DNA of 64,000 bases from a virus (Duplodnaviria > Caudoviricetes), in IMG/VR virus record IMGVR_UViG_3300037420_000470, positions 23,298 to 87,297 of that record. The stretch is one strand, 5' to 3'. A program made the translations under genes and the position numbers. The notes under the pieces are model-generated. The model saw nothing but the letters and a program-made list of their open reading frames with translations. It searched no databases and was not told the DNA's origin. Positions 2,265 to 50,703 of the stretch are shown here, piece after piece; within the stretch, counting starts at the first letter, position 1, and every line of letters starts with the position of its first letter.

Positions 2265-3115
2265 GTGATATTGAAGTTGGGGATGTTGTACGAGTTGTAG
2301 ATACTGGCAAGCAATTCAGTCTATACACAGAATGGGCAAGCAAACATGGTCTGGATCACTTCAGTACAAAGCGTGATGTTGAGAAAGGAAAAGAATACTC
2401 TGTTGTTGTGATAGCTCCGCATAGTAGGTATGGTGTGTACGGAACCCTATACGGCTTGCGTGATGAAACCACTGGTTATGAACACATCATTGGACGAGGG
2501 GGAATTGAGTTAGTGTCTAAGAAGTTTGAACTTCAAGATGATTTTGATTTCACTTATGCAGATGCGCGATACAACTTCAAGAAGAAATCAGATGGTGTGT
2601 ACACTTGCACTAAGTATGGTGATGATTGGCAGTATGACTATGTTTCTGGTGAATTGAGTCAAGCAATTAATCTGTTCGAAAACGGTGTTTGGAAAATTGT
2701 TGAAAAGGAGACTGAATTGGTGGAACAACAAGTAGCGAACGGTGTAGATGCTAATAACAAACCTTTGAATTTCACTATTGATGATCTTCAACCGTTTGAT
2801 CGTGTAATCACTGATTCAGGTACATATATTGTTGTGTTGGACGGTGATAGGTGTGTTCTAGTAGGTGTTGGTGGTTGGCTTGATGAAGATGTATTCTTAT
2901 ACGATACATGCCATTATTTCTCACCACTGGAAGTGTATAGCAAGCCAACTTACTACGTTGATTACTTCGATTACAACCTTCAAGGTAGGCTTCGCTGGAA
3001 GCGTGTTGATCCTGAGTTTGTTAAACGGATTTCTTACTTGGAAGAGAAGATCAAAGCTGTAGCTGATGAATTGCACACTCTGCAAAACGAGTATTACGAA
3101 CTGAAAGTAGCATAG
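2261..3115 (+). CDS. hypothetical protein (multi-domain, C-terminal coiled coil)
   Basis: 284 aa, ATGA overlap, RBS GGAGG. Confidence 0.7.
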   Translation: MSDIEVGDVVRVVDTGKQFSLYTEWASKHGLDHFSTKRDVEKGKEYSVVVIAPHSRYGVYGTLYGLRDETTGYEHIIGRGGIELVSKKFELQDDFDFTYADARYNFKKKSDGVYTCTKYGDDWQYDYVSGELSQAINLFENGVWKIVEKETELVEQQVANGVDANNKPLNFTIDDLQPFDRVITDSGTYIVVLDGDRCVLVGVGGWLDEDVFLYDTCHYFSPLEVYSKPTYYVDYFDYNLQGRLRWKRVDPEFVKRISYLEEKIKAVADELHTLQNEYYELKVA

Positions 3116-38115: not shown

Positions 38116-38214
38116 ACCCGCGCCTCCACCGAGTAAAATCACATCTGTATGATTATCGGTGAGAAAAAGCCTCTGCTTCTCTGAGCAGGGGCCGTAAACT
38201 TTGGTTTCACTCAA
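38116..38214 (-). CDS. terL: terminase large subunit, exon 1
   Basis: TTG start overlapping the HNH stop; MSETKVYGPCSEKQRLFLTDNHTDVILLGGGAG joins GGKS to give Walker A. Confidence 0.85.
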
Positions 38215-39020
38215 TCTGTTATCTCCACTTCATATTTATACAAAGCATCGTAACAACGAGGATCAATCACATCTTTGTATTTGTCTGCTAAAACTTTTAA
38301 ATACTTCTCTTTCGCTTTCTTATAAGCTTTGAAAGCTTCAGTAGGGCAGTTGAAATAACCTAAATGCCTAGTCTTATTATTCTCTCTAAGGCAAGCCATG
38401 AACTTGTTGTGCTGAGAGTGCCAACTTACACCGATGGGATAATCACCCCGCTTTGAATTAGCTTTAGTCAATTGAGAATTAATTTCCGCAGGGACAAACA
38501 CACAATACTCAGGGCAATAGAGTTTATTGCCTTTTTTCAAAATGTCCTTATCAAGATGAAAACCTTGCTCTTTATATCCTATCTGCTTTTGACACCAATC
38601 AGAGAAGTTATCAGCATACAACCATTCATCACAAACTTCTACACCAGTATATGTTGGTTTTCCAGAATGATATTTGGAATTATAAGCCCGTGTCATCATC
38701 CCATACCAAGTGTTGTATTCCTTTGTAATCACACCGTTATCGTCGTGTGTTTTACTTTTAAAAGGTTTATACCCAACACCATACACTGTAGGGATGTTTG
38801 GATCATAGACACGTTTAGGAATTTTATCAGCACACTTCTTGCAACCTTGACCCCGCTTATGGGAGTTATATACTTGAGAGAACACCCCATGCTCTTTGCA
38901 AATAATATCTATCTTCTCTTTTGTTGCTGTGTACTTAACCAACGAATAATCGTAAGTATTACCATGCACGTCAATTAACTCTTTAACTGCTACTTCTTGC
39001 GTCAATACTCTCTTTGCCAC
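38211..39020 (-). CDS. free-standing HNH-type homing endonuclease
   Basis: CKEHG...CKKC; LDKDIL...YCPEYCVFVP..IN; C-terminal AP2-like HLGYF. Confidence 0.8.
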   Translation of the reverse strand: MAKRVLTQEVAVKELIDVHGNTYDYSLVKYTATKEKIDIICKEHGVFSQVYNSHKRGQGCKKCADKIPKRVYDPNIPTVYGVGYKPFKSKTHDDNGVITKEYNTWYGMMTRAYNSKYHSGKPTYTGVEVCDEWLYADNFSDWCQKQIGYKEQGFHLDKDILKKGNKLYCPEYCVFVPAEINSQLTKANSKRGDYPIGVSWHSQHNKFMACLRENNKTRHLGYFNCPTEAFKAYKKAKEKYLKVLADKYKDVIDPRCYDALYKYEVEITD

Positions 39021-46617: not shown

Positions 46618-46863
46618 CTATGCTCCTTTCTTCGGCTTGGTCTTCATCGTAAAAGTGACGATACATTGCATCAGCTTCTTCTGCTCGTCTGTGGTGAGGT
46701 TGAATTCATGAGCCACTTCAGAGACATATTGCCCAACCAGTGTAAATGGCATGCTAGGTTCAAGAGCCAGCGCCTTACTAGCTATCCTAGCAATCTTTTC
46801 AATGAAATCATCCTTGTCCATGTTGATTCTTGATCCGTTTCCATATTTATACCGAGTAACCAT
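46618..46863 (-). CDS. hypothetical protein
   Basis: RBS GGAG; coupled to downstream gene. Confidence 0.6.
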   Translation of the reverse strand: MVTRYKYGNGSRINMDKDDFIEKIARIASKALALEPSMPFTLVGQYVSEVAHEFNLTTDEQKKLMQCIVTFTMKTKPKKGA

Positions 46864-46917
46864 AATCACTCCTTAGAAGAAAGTTATTACAACTAGGGCT
46901 ATAGCGAAATACGGAAG

Positions 46918-47172
46918 CTATAGCTTTATCATCAACAACTTCTCATTCGTCAAATGCTCTAAAAACTCAATATGCGTATAGCCAGTGGCTTTGATGGCTA
47001 TTTCATCCTGCATAGTGCAATAAGGACCACCAGCAGTTCCAGGAACTACGATTTTAAAATCCAATCCCTTTAACCAATCCGTTAATGCTGTTTCCCACTT
47101 ATGGTAATCCCTCCCATAAGCACCAGCAACAGATAAGATCATCTCATCCTCCTTGTCCGTTAAATCGTACAA
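46918..47172 (-). CDS. hypothetical protein
   Basis: 84 aa, TTG start. Confidence 0.55.
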   Translation of the reverse strand: MYDLTDKEDEMILSVAGAYGRDYHKWETALTDWLKGLDFKIVVPGTAGGPYCTMQDEIAIKATGYTHIEFLEHLTNEKLLMIKL

Positions 47173-47202
47173 TAAGCCTTATAATGTCCATTTTAACGGA
47201 CA

Positions 47203-47847
47203 TTAAGCAGCTTTCCTATTGTATTGCTCTTGCCTTACATTCCATTCTTGTTCATATTCTTCCATCTTCCCTTCCCAAGATTTGAGATTCCTATGAATCG
47301 TATTCCTGGGAATGTTGTACAACGCTTGCAACTTCTCATACGACAAACCTTCTGCTTTCTTTTCCATCAATTCTTTCAGCATAGCAGGGGCGATTGTTAA
47401 AGGAGCACCAAGTTTAGTTCCTTGTGCTTTGGTGCGGTCTAGGCCAGCCTTAGTACGCTCAATCAACAAATTCTTTTCCATCTCAGCCATAGCAGCCATC
47501 ATCGTAACCAACATCTTTCCAGTGCTAGAGGTAAGGTCAGTTCCATCGAATTGCATCACTCTCAGACGGATACCCAACTTCTTAAAATCCTCTACAACCG
47601 ACAATACATCAATCGCATTCCTACCCAACCTATCAACTGCAGTGACGATTACAGTGTCTCCTGCTTTAGCCCTAGACATCATGTATTTAAACGCTGTACG
47701 CTCACAAGCTTTAATGGAGCCAGAAATACCATCTTCTGAAATATATTCATCAACGGTAAATCCTGCATCAGCGATCAGCTTACGTTGGTTCTCAGTGGTT
47801 TGATCATGCGTTGTGGTGGAGACACGGATGTATGCGAATGTTGTCAT
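47203..47847 (-). CDS. small serine recombinase (resolvase/invertase)
   Basis: YIRVST (catalytic Ser), DRLGRN, MAAMAEMEK..ERT..GL...G..LG, C-terminal HTH. Confidence 0.92.
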   Translation of the reverse strand: MTTFAYIRVSTTTHDQTTENQRKLIADAGFTVDEYISEDGISGSIKACERTAFKYMMSRAKAGDTVIVTAVDRLGRNAIDVLSVVEDFKKLGIRLRVMQFDGTDLTSSTGKMLVTMMAAMAEMEKNLLIERTKAGLDRTKAQGTKLGAPLTIAPAMLKELMEKKAEGLSYEKLQALYNIPRNTIHRNLKSWEGKMEEYEQEWNVRQEQYNRKAA

Positions 47848-47880
47848 TTAATTCCCCTACAAGTGATTGAACATGTAGCT

Positions 47881-47993
47881 AGTGTAGAGGCATATCCCAT
47901 TAGTGTCAATAACTTTATGGGAAAATATTCTAATTTGTTTGATATTGCTCAAACACCAGAGCATATTGCTCAAACACTCTTTCTTTGCTACAA
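47881..47993. promoter_or_regulatory. divergent promoters with res-like repeats
   Basis: TTGACA-N17-TACACT (-) and TTGCTC-N17-TACAAT (+); ATATTGCTCAAACAC twice, 21 bp apart. Confidence 0.6.
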
Positions 47994-48027
47994 TGCTAAT
48001 GCAATTTTGCACAACATAGGAGAATGA

Positions 48028-49542
48028 ATGACTAATAATGTAACGTTGATGCTTGGTGATTGTATTGACAAGATGAAAACCCTTCCAGATAGCTCTGTAG
48101 ACTCTATAATAACTGATCCTCCCTACGCTTTCCCTGGCGGGTTCATGGGCAAAGGATGGGACAATTTTGATGGACAAGAAGATGCTGCTTTCGGCTACTG
48201 GTTTGCTGGATTTACAGACGGTGAAGGTCACTTTAGAGTTCAGAAACATGAACGTGGTACACATACTTGCGCTTTCCAATTAAAACTGAGGGATGATGAT
48301 TTAGCTGCTCTTGAGCGAATTAAACGTTTTGTCGGGTATGGTTCAATTTCTTTTGTAGAAGGAGATGGAAGTAGTAACCGACAAGCGGTGTATGTGATAC
48401 AAAACAAAGATGGTTGCGATAGGCTAGTTTCTATTTTTCGTAAGTATCCTCTCACTGCGAAGAAAGCTTTAGATTTTGAAATTTGGGCAGAAGCAGTAGA
48501 AGAATGGCTTGAAAGACCAAGGGGTAATCGCTGGTATGGTGCTGCGGATCAAACTCGTGCAGCAATTTTGAAAGCAAGACTAGAAGATGTTCGGCGTTAC
48601 ACTGATACACCTTGGTCTGGAAATAACTTTCAAGATTGGGTTCGTCAATGGGCTAAAGAGTGTTTGAGGGTGTTAAAACCAGGAGGTCACATATTGGCAT
48701 TCGGATCACCAAAGCAATACCATCGACTAGCGGCAGGTATTGAGGATGCAGGTTTCGAGATTAGGGATCAGATACAATGGATTTTTGGTTCTGGATTTCC
48801 GAAAAGTCATAACTTAAAAGGTGAGTGGGAAGGTTGGGGAACTGCTTTAAAGCCAGCACATGAACCAATCTGTGTAGCACGTAAGCCATTAGCAGAGAAG
48901 ACAGTAGCATCGAATGTGCTTAAATATGGCACAGGGGGGATTAATATTGATGAATGTCGTGTACCAGTTGACCCTGAATCTGATTCATCACAACTACGAA
49001 CAATGAATAGAAGTGAGAGAGACGCAGGGAGAGTTTTTGGTAAATACACAAATGGTGACACAACACAGGTAGTTCATACAGAAGGAAGATGGCCTGCTAA
49101 TATAATTCACGACAGTAGTGCTGAAGTTTTGGAATTGTTTCCAACCACAACAAGCGGGAAACCAGCAGCAAAGCCAAAAACAGAGAGTGTTAAAACTGAG
49201 GGGTGGGGGAACATAGGAATAAATGGACATGGACACCTATATGGGGATACGGGGTCTGCAGCACGTTTCTTTTATTGTGCTAAAGCTTCAAAGAAAGATA
49301 GGGGAGAAGGAAACAACCACCCCACTGTGAAACCTCAAGAACTGATGAAATATCTTGTACGTCTTGTCACTCCACCTAACGGGATTGTGCTTGATCCTTT
49401 CATGGGGAGTGGGAGTACAGGGGTTGCATGTCAAGCTGAGAATTTTGGATTCATTGGGATTGAGCAGAGTGAAGAGTATTTTCAGATAGCACAGAATAGG
49501 CTAGAGAGAATCACACTTGAAAGTGTTGCTGAAGCAGCGTAA
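48028..49542 (+). CDS. beta-class N4-C/N6-A DNA methyltransferase with in-frame LAGLIDADG domain
   Basis: DPPY (aa 30-33), RVLKPGG, HPTVKP, DPFMGSGSTG; YWFAGFTDGEG insertion at about aa 49-198. Confidence 0.88.
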   Translation: MTNNVTLMLGDCIDKMKTLPDSSVDSIITDPPYAFPGGFMGKGWDNFDGQEDAAFGYWFAGFTDGEGHFRVQKHERGTHTCAFQLKLRDDDLAALERIKRFVGYGSISFVEGDGSSNRQAVYVIQNKDGCDRLVSIFRKYPLTAKKALDFEIWAEAVEEWLERPRGNRWYGAADQTRAAILKARLEDVRRYTDTPWSGNNFQDWVRQWAKECLRVLKPGGHILAFGSPKQYHRLAAGIEDAGFEIRDQIQWIFGSGFPKSHNLKGEWEGWGTALKPAHEPICVARKPLAEKTVASNVLKYGTGGINIDECRVPVDPESDSSQLRTMNRSERDAGRVFGKYTNGDTTQVVHTEGRWPANIIHDSSAEVLELFPTTTSGKPAAKPKTESVKTEGWGNIGINGHGHLYGDTGSAARFFYCAKASKKDRGEGNNHPTVKPQELMKYLVRLVTPPNGIVLDPFMGSGSTGVACQAENFGFIGIEQSEEYFQIAQNRLERITLESVAEAA

Positions 49543-49563
49543 TTTTATTTAAAAATTATTTTC

Positions 49564-49596
49564 AGGGAGGGCAACTAGCGTTGTCTTCCCTTTTTG
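49564..49596 (+). terminator. intrinsic terminator
   Basis: AGGGAGGGCAAC-TAGC-GTTGTCTTCCCT then T-tract. Confidence 0.65.
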
Positions 49597-50181
49597 TTTG
49601 GTTGTAAATATCCTGTTAGGAATAGGTAAAAATCGAATGTGTGGCTTAACCACCCCGGCTGGCCCTGATTCACCCTCGCCAAGACTCCAAAATATCCCTA
49701 CAAGCAGCGATCTCACCCAGGACATAGCAAACCATGTCCAACGCTTAAAGCCTCTCAAAACGGCTCTAATTCAGTTTAAACAGCATGTGTATTTATACAG
49801 TGTTTTAGGGTTGGCATGGATATTGCTTAGGATAACTTAGGTCTGACTACTGTATTAACACATGTGTTTATGTACAGTAGTCCATCCCATTAATAGGCTT
49901 ATCCTGTTTACGCTCGGTAATGGGACGGAATAACACTGTCTAAGAGGTAGGAAAGATGCACATATTAGTCATACACTTAGATGTACGCTATGCTGCATGG
50001 CGCTATGTATACCTGTTGACGGACCAGCATGCTATGTGACGGCATAATGCATATGGCATGCATCTTGCTTGTGTTGGATGCACAAAACATACCTGTATGT
50101 TGCATATAAGCAAGGTTTCGCACTGGTTCATGTATGCACTGTTAACATGATGTGCTAAGAAGGAGGCACTGATGACGTGCT

Positions 50182-50263
50182 TAACCAAAGCACATGTTTA
50201 ATCTATAACCAATAATGCTGTTTAGTCTATAACCAAAGAACATGTTTAATCTATAACCAATAA
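50182..50263. repeat. imperfect direct repeats TGTTTARTCTATAACCAA (three copies)
   Basis: AACCAAAG(C/A)ACATGTTTAATCTATAACCAATAA duplicated. Confidence 0.8.
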
Positions 50264-50280
50264 GAAGCCATACAATAAAC

Positions 50281-50321
50281 TTATACACAGATATCATTAG
50301 TTATCCACAAACTTATCCACA
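50281..50321 (+). promoter_or_regulatory. three DnaA-box matches (cluster A)
   Basis: TTATACACA at 50281, TTATCCACA at 50301 and 50313. Confidence 0.7.
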
Positions 50322-50703
50322 TATAAAGTTCTTTTAATTATTTCCTTACATTAATTGTTTTTAGTATGCACTAAACAACAAACACTAATAAATACTCGTC
50401 TAATCAATGGCTTATAAAGAGCCTATAAGCTATTTATAATCGCCTTATAGGCTCTTTGCACAAACACAATACATACTAGATTAAACACTGTTTTAACGGT
50501 CTATTAGGCCACTACATAATGCCTGTACATGTCCCATGCTTGAGCATAGCTTCCGTACAATACCTATGTCATGCCTGAAGCTATGCCTTTATTCTGTTTT
50601 GTTTTTAGTTTCATACATTAGTTTTTCTTTTAAGGAATCCTTTAAAATGTTGTTTTTAGGATATGTTTCCTGTATAATTTACGGTTCTTTCAAGGAACCT
50701 TTA

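Follow-up and report, generated by a model that had tools for sequence, protein, structure and literature searches.

A LAGLIDADG endonuclease domain embedded in frame in a phage beta-class DNA methyltransferase, with no recognised intein or intron

The product of a 504-aa open reading frame (ORF) from an uncultured soil phage combines, in one uninterrupted chain, a beta-class DNA methyltransferase and a complete LAGLIDADG endonuclease domain of the single-motif type. The stretch analysed, hereafter the window, corresponds to the last 64 kb of the 87,297-bp IMG/VR virus record IMGVR_UViG_3300037420_000470, which is complete according to CheckV; the GC content of the window is 41%, and the phage is given as 43% GC. 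The ORF (48028-49542, plus strand) is open throughout, and the insert occupies aa ~51-194 (48178-48609, plus strand) without a start or stop codon of its own, as indicated by Pfam, free-standing relatives, an AlphaFold model and structural superposition. A preliminary description of this DNA, made from the letters alone, had placed a single-motif LAGLIDADG domain in frame within a beta-class methyltransferase at 48172-48621 (aa 49-198). The motifs and flanks that it quoted are all present and Pfam finds both domains; the location stands, whereas the boundaries are now narrowed by end-to-end alignment with free-standing relatives. The reading favoured here, to which we give about an even chance of being right, is that of a homing element that does without splicing and is tolerated in a surface loop of the methylase as a permanent fusion.

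The host protein is an N6-adenine/N4-cytosine DNA methyltransferase of the beta class (PF01555), similar to CcrM and RsrI. Pfam matches N6_N4_Mtase at aa 192-489 (E 1e-38), with the DPPY-containing N-terminal part preceding the insert, and the order of motifs is that of the beta class, from motif IV (DPPY, aa 30-33, 48115-48126) through the target-recognition region to motif I (FMGSGS, aa 458-463, 49399-49416). The motifs DPPY, RVLKPGG, SGFPKS, HPTVKP and FMGSGS are all intact, and the flanks of the insert are found as GKGWD (aa 41-45) and WAKECLRVLKPGG (aa 208-220). On the plus strand, the N-terminal part (aa 1-50, 48028-48177) includes the invariant FMGKxWD of alignments A1 and A2, its fold matching CcrM and M.BceJIV with Z ~25. 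The insert is followed by the helix FQDWVRQWAKE and the catalytic core RVLKPGG...SGFPKS...ALKPAHEP (aa 195-300, 48610-48927), common to insert-free homologues and 69-84% identical in amino acids across the family, then by the variable target-recognition region (aa ~301-410, 48928-49257; 25-58% identity, with insert-free relatives closest), which is swapped between otherwise collinear phages, and finally by the C-terminal AdoMet-binding part with the stop codon (aa 411-504, 49258-49542), defined by invariant columns in A1 and A2. Moreover, when the insert is left out, the AlphaFold model (97-sequence alignment, mean predicted local distance difference test score, pLDDT, of 82.8) superposes on the solved methylases CcrM (6pbd, Z 25.5), M.BceJIV (25.0) and M.RsrI (22.8), covering model residues 1-503 with the insert skipped; MboIIA and M1.HpyAVI also match.

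The point of insertion is a length-variable, permissive loop after motif IV, which serves generally as a hot spot for inserted domains. Among relatives, the distance from DPPY to RVLKPG is 33, 35, 57-79, 123-126 or ~185 aa, and the FQDWVRQWAKE helix belongs to the methylase part, being present too in insert-free relatives with 60-80 aa of filler at this place. Two proteins (P0054 and P0117) carry 123-126 aa of filler in the same loop (window 48163-48660) with a CxxC...CxC spacing, possibly a zinc ribbon, others having 57-79 aa. As for the target-recognition region, three collinear phages (L093, L094 and L008), 85-90% identical over kilobases, differ only by a clean replacement of this region (gap at L093 2085-2347), which suggests specificity swapping through recombination within the gene. 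Also, in the closest insert relative, P0020 from a 92.8-kb contig, the methylase (L087:3001-4628) is broken into overlapping ORFs of 352 and 204 aa by a frameshift inside the target-recognition region, either real or a sequencing error.

Within the insert, LAGLIDADG_1 (PF00961) is matched by Pfam at aa 60-156 (E 9e-17), and the sequences YWFAGFTDGEGHF (aa 57-69), FQLKLRDDD (aa 83-91) and YPLTAKKALDFEIW (aa 140-153) are located. GFTDGEG (aa 61-67) corresponds to the LAGLIDADG helix motif ending in an acidic residue and is paired by HMMER with GFTDAEG of I-LtrI. The longer motif WFAGFTDGEG (aa 58-67, 48199-48228) contains E66, a putative metal-binding acid according to its conservation and the alignment to I-LtrI. 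The PLxxKK element, PLTAKK in the window, is aligned by HMMER to the conserved lysine region of I-LtrI, and its K145-K146 (48460-48465) fall, in the Pfam and PDB HMMER alignments, where LAGLIDADG enzymes have their conserved active-site lysine, a position that we take to be that of K98 in I-CreI.

In the AlphaFold model, the insert is predicted with pLDDT >93 and the order alpha-beta-beta-alpha-beta-beta-alpha-alpha, and its connections to the methylase (aa 40-49 and ~190-199) have low pLDDT. The LAGLIDADG domain is modelled as a globular unit of its own, attached through two flexible linkers, with the methylase core and its motifs undisturbed. Model residues 49-198 superpose on the halves of I-OnuI (VIA, Z 17.4, root mean square deviation 2.2 Å) and also on almost the entire chains of the homodimeric I-Vdi141I, I-TnaI and I-CvuI, the range against solved LAGLIDADG enzymes being Z 15-17, 2.2-3.1 Å and 125-132 aligned residues. 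As judged from the model, the insert is a complete LAGLIDADG subunit of the single-motif type.

At the N-terminal junction, FDGQEDAAF, there is no Cys, Ser or Thr as required for an intein, and at the C-terminal junction, RRYTDTPWSGNNFQ, His-Asn with a nucleophile after it is likewise missing, the homologues reading SGHKFQDW there. No Hint or intein family is matched by the 504-aa ORF in Pfam at E<=1, and a permissive Rfam scan of 47500-50000 gives no intron family at E<=10, only two unrelated weak matches. A match to the Rfam family L20_leader at 49515-49602 (24.6 bits against a cut-off of 58.7) overlaps a terminator hairpin and was taken as chance. There is also no room for a HINT domain, because the LAGLIDADG fold occupies the whole 144-aa insert. 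On the other side, the reading frame is open and under protein-level purifying selection across both junctions in ~60 homologues from genomes of 43-65% GC; therefore, a permanent 504-aa fusion is the only reading that the sequence supports. Together, the data support that the insert is neither an intein nor a group I or II intron. In this respect the preliminary description, which had dismissed both, expected no HINT domain in an AlphaFold model and proposed a permanent fusion, is borne out at each point. The insert could nonetheless be removed in a hidden way, by an unrecognised mechanism resembling that of inteins or introns, by ribosomal bypassing or by proteolysis, so that the mature methylase would lack it, and related methylases do host other unorthodox insertions, namely the ShiLan element and an HNH ORF that splits the gene (see below). 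However, the absence of splicing families and junction nucleophiles, the single fold that accounts for the entire insert and the selection that runs through both junctions make such a removal very improbable.

The embedded architecture has a wide distribution among metagenome sequences of phages and prophages, where it is found in dozens of clusters at 50% identity. When 1.84 billion representative proteins were scanned by HMMER with aa 47-200 as query, 48 matches below 1e-30 were obtained, which comprise proteins of 500-860 aa, two-domain LAGLIDADG proteins of 290-420 aa, and single-domain ORFs of 145-200 aa. Among the longest proteins, all ten tested combine N6_N4_Mtase with LAGLIDADG_1 at residues ~50-185. 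The single-domain ORFs lie between unrelated genes in phage-like contigs, start with M-x-D-x-A-F-G-H-W-L-A-G-F, end a few residues past R-x-Y, and cover residues ~51-194 of the window protein (P0001) and nothing more. In the alignment, the free-standing ORFs of 145-195 aa begin at the residue aligned with D52 and finish at that aligned with Y191. From this end-to-end match it follows that the insert is an entire homing-endonuclease gene minus its start and stop codons. Another apparent host protein, P0192, with the N-terminus of a single-stranded DNA-binding protein followed by LAGLIDADG, was set aside as probable gene-call read-through, its linker being of low complexity, rich in Arg, Pro and Gly, and its contig of high GC. 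Another unusual arrangement is that of P0155 (514 aa), a two-domain LAGLIDADG protein with HTH_3 between both LAGLIDADG repeats. Contigs of four soil and rhizosphere DNA runs mapped to 46800-50600 give only fragments, with no contig spanning the insert and no coverage of 48451-48700.

The residues G61, D64, G65, E66, G67, F69, R88, D90, G105, L142 and W153 are invariant in 46 embedded and 22 free-standing homologues, and K145 and K146 are both kept in every one of the 46 aligned embedded homologues. In codon alignments with seven viral relatives, the rate of nonsynonymous substitution (dN) is 0.05-0.20 for the insert against 0.18-0.32 for the methylase, the synonymous rate (dS) being saturated. 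Inserts that are 90-100% identical in protein share identical codons at only 21-59% of the conserved residues. By these estimates, purifying selection is stronger on the insert than on the surrounding methylase. The insert has a GC content of 0.419 and 0.236 at third codon positions (GC3), in line with the gene and the phage, the relatives being of 54-65% GC. Synonymous sites are saturated and the composition matches the genome; therefore, the domain is old in each lineage. Overall, the LAGLIDADG element is real and intact, and it is probably functional.

A domain that is more constrained than its scaffold and fully adapted to the genome in composition would also be expected from a domesticated module, captured once long ago and now serving the methylase as an obligate dimerisation device, as a DNA-binding surface, or both, with cutting no longer its role. 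In favour of such a service, CcrM and M.BceJIV, the closest solved methylases, work as dimers. However, every embedded copy retains E66 and K145/K146, as free-standing endonucleases do, while LAGLIDADG-derived proteins without nuclease activity, for example WhiA, have lost the catalytic residues. Domestication is thus a possible explanation, although a clearly less probable one than homing.

The history of the insert was followed with methylase-only trees, from which the insert and the target-recognition region were excluded, and with a tree of the LAGLIDADG domain. A quick methylase tree suggested a patchy distribution of the insert (8 changes, with the window protein among insert-free proteins), but this was a search artefact, the constrained tree being better. 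Holding the 18 insert-bearing methylases of clade A together improves the log-likelihood by 110 units (approximately unbiased (AU) test, p 0.96), and a single clade of all 24 insert-bearing methylases is not rejected (AU p 0.29), which is compatible with the single capture that domestication supposes. The backbone of the careful methylase-only tree is unresolved. In the domain tree, 45 embedded copies, including those of the window and of mycobacteriophage Taj, form one group (Shimodaira-Hasegawa-like approximate likelihood ratio test 94) and the true free-standing ORFs fall elsewhere, so that a single capture is allowed. Moreover, two insert lineages can be distinguished, with inserts 35-44% identical against 65-78% for the methylase cores, although the values form a continuum. 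Independent captures of both lineages were considered for this reason and may have taken place, the domain tree allowing a single origin as well.

A comparison of loci provides the counterpart without the insert. An 85-kb contig (L192) has the same order of PhoH, protease, phosphoesterase, resolvase (minus strand) and methylase (plus strand), with neighbour identities of 38-75%. Its 359-aa methylase aligns only to aa 4-45 and 196-495 of the window protein (62%) and, as judged from gene order and alignment, is the syntenic orthologue without precisely the insert. That this orthologue and many other close relatives manage without the domain speaks against an obligate, domesticated role.

Regarding lateral movement, P0014 and P0019 have identical inserts within a DNA block of 918 bp at 97.5%, which runs from the gene start to aa ~309 (L089 nt 1464-2381 against L088) and has the insert inside. 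Outside this block, no similarity is seen in the upstream genes, and identity is ~50% in the target-recognition region and 70% in the C-terminal part. If the phage of P0019 (L089) is compared instead with L101, whose methylase is short and insert-free, identities of 91.5% for the upstream genes and 86% for the C-terminal part of the methylase and downstream sequence are observed, with 80-83% inside the island. From this pattern, L089 is an L101-like phage that carries an insert-bearing segment of P0014-like origin, and the comparison indicates that the insert-bearing half-gene has moved laterally at least once, a recent movement that speaks against domestication. The island is the footprint that would be expected from homing with co-conversion of the flanks, although it is not proof of it. 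A second, partial island is found between L091 and L092 (P0005 and P0024), which share only an 874-bp block at 94% (aa 21-311). For L091, a search with its upstream gene for a collinear insert-free relative gave a best match of 68%, with no matching methylase nearby.

The L101 methylase (L101:1115-3015) is split after GRWPANLI into an N-terminal ORF (1115-1936) and a C-terminal ORF (2509-3015), with a free-standing HNH endonuclease ORF (1923-2519) between both halves. Relative to L089, the split corresponds to an insertion of ~740 bp, with flanks of 25 and 39 bp at 97-100% identity, and no Rfam intron was found there. P0025 ends with the same short tail, the split form being thus recurrent.

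Based on these observations, the following sequence of events is proposed. A whole free-standing phage LAGLIDADG gene, minus its start and stop codons, would have been placed in frame in the loop after motif IV, and translation would yield the permanent 504-aa fusion with neither RNA nor protein splicing. Two copies of the fusion protein would then dimerise by way of their LAGLIDADG helices, in the manner of I-CreI, and so form a long-site nuclease, as the single motif and the conserved residues suggest. The likeliest target would be the same methylase gene of a co-infecting phage in its insert-free form, the insertion point lying between the two most conserved coding stretches, FMGKxWD and LRVLKPGG, as is typical of homing targets. 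Repair off the insert-bearing copy would transfer not only the insert but also a few hundred bases of the methylase sequence beside it, and the element would in this way spread during co-infection. We propose that it persists because the host gene is unharmed and because repeated homing keeps the catalytic residues under selection. The preliminary description had offered such a splicing-free parasite in a surface loop as one of two options, and it is the one that fits best, given the length variation of the loop, the low-confidence linkers and the one island that resembles co-conversion.

Nonetheless, several points weigh against the homing element. Its nuclease activity, dimerisation and target site are predictions from sequence. 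The methylase tree shows no patchiness, which agrees with the vertical inheritance published for this insert. Recent transfer into the window has left no signal, synonymous divergence being saturated and composition adapted. Degenerate copies are absent among ~60 embedded examples, which is unusual for a purely selfish element and suits domestication better. Also, the islands could be due to ordinary modular recombination, since target-recognition regions are swapped without involvement of the insert in L093, L094 and L008, and the island ends coincide with the limits of homology, both right-hand boundaries included.

If the domain still cuts, its link to a methylase could have a different meaning. 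A single-chain weapon, in which a LAGLIDADG dimer would cut host or competitor DNA while the methylase marks self, in the manner of restriction-modification or marker exclusion, is an option raised by Gosselin, Arsenault, Jennings and Gogarten (Genes 2023, PMC9957025), who judged it unlikely because LAGLIDADG sites of ~20 bp are too rare for general restriction. For the window protein, both modules look catalytically intact, and the covalent link would ensure joint inheritance and expression. However, target-recognition regions swap freely while the insert is near-constant, which argues against coupled specificities of the type IIG kind, and no partner or immunity gene is conserved alongside; a weapon of this sort seems unlikely. 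A similarly small chance is given to a working two-activity enzyme, where the LAGLIDADG dimer would join two methylase cores and cutting at long sites would depend on, or be blocked by, the enzyme's own methylation, for competitor exclusion or self/non-self discrimination. The other option of the preliminary description, a methylase-meganuclease chimaera that would target long sites or cut competing phage DNA as non-self, is neither favoured nor contradicted by the sequence.

Around the methylase gene, a Shine-Dalgarno-like AGGAGA (48018-48023, plus strand) is read 4 nt 5' of the ATG, and downstream lies a hairpin of 12 bp with a T run behind it (49564-49591, plus strand), which resembles an intrinsic terminator. 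The divergent neighbour is a serine recombinase of the resolvase/invertase type (47203-47847, minus strand; PHROG 125 DNA invertase, E 3e-49), given here as context only. The divergent pair of recombinase and methylase is kept in both phages (window 47203-49542; L192:8623-11080), the resolvase being the best-conserved neighbour, with 74.5% amino acid identity. The genes of the window phage include an anti-repressor, PhoH, a protease, a phosphoesterase, an HNH endonuclease and the serine recombinase. The HNH endonuclease, a second nuclease gene, is a 269-aa ORF (38211-39020, minus strand; PHROG 953, E 3e-72) with weak matches near the terminase end of L192.

The arrangement suggests that a protein-coding gene can harbour a homing endonuclease without splicing, through a permissive loop, which is a little-documented route for selfish DNA, and it provides a natural example of a tolerated domain insertion. 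It extends the actinophage case to a broad distribution in phages and prophages, with strong selection and with lateral movement at least once. If the domain were active while fused, the protein would be a compact natural methylase-meganuclease scaffold and a clean system for studying how homing elements persist without degenerating.

Novelty had been implied in the preliminary description, but papers of 2023 and 2025 had already described this element, at the identical site, in the methylases of cluster F mycobacteriophages, where Taj gp79 and eight others contain a "seemingly lone LAGLIDADG homing endonuclease", with no intein or intron detected and an apparently vertical inheritance (Gosselin et al. 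2023, PMC9957025; Arsenault et al., Genes 2025, PMC11855218). In a tblastn search, the window insert matches Taj, Wee (gp78), Kersh, Mantra and others with 51.6% identity over 153 aa, and Rhodobacter phage methylases with 36.6%. The window protein shares with the Taj gp79 type the methylase family, the insertion point (after FMxKxWD and before WAxECLRVLKPGG, with identical boundaries in A2) and a homologous insert including the C-terminal PRGNRW...R.Y tail. However, it comes from an uncultured soil phage of 87 kb and 43% GC and not from an actinophage, and its target-recognition region is another one. Moreover, only nine closely related copies without evidence of transfer were described in these papers, whereas here dozens of clusters, an insert-free orthologue and one recombinant island are available.

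Compared with other known systems, the free-standing phage LAGLIDADG ORFs (P0172, P0190, P0194, P0236 and P0265) are collinear with the insert over their full length, with 41-50% identity and the same invariant residues, but each has a start and a stop codon of its own and is located between other genes, whereas the insert is peptide-bonded to the methylase at both ends. The single LAGLIDADG motif per chain is shared with enzymes of the homodimeric I-CreI, I-CvuI, I-Vdi141I and I-TnaI type. The ShiLan element, an in-frame insertion in the same actinophage methylase family that hides an HNH endonuclease read out of frame (PMC11855218), is likewise a splicing-free insertion tolerated in a methylase loop with the frame open throughout; in this case, however, the nuclease uses a different reading frame and what is translated in frame is a passive loop, while in the window the in-frame peptide is the nuclease domain itself. 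LAGLIDADG inteins and the I-OnuI-family enzymes of group I introns have the same fold, the closest solved sequences being I-LtrI, I-PanMI and I-OnuI, and are also inserted at the conserved catalytic-motif region of a host gene, but the window insert is without HINT domain, splice-junction residues or intron RNA and has one domain instead of two. The window case, found in a soil phage of low GC, is therefore a further example of an arrangement whose first description dates from 2023, to which it adds a broader distribution, the end-to-end match with free-standing ORFs, selection figures, the insert-free orthologue and the L089/L088/L101 island, the category being unchanged.

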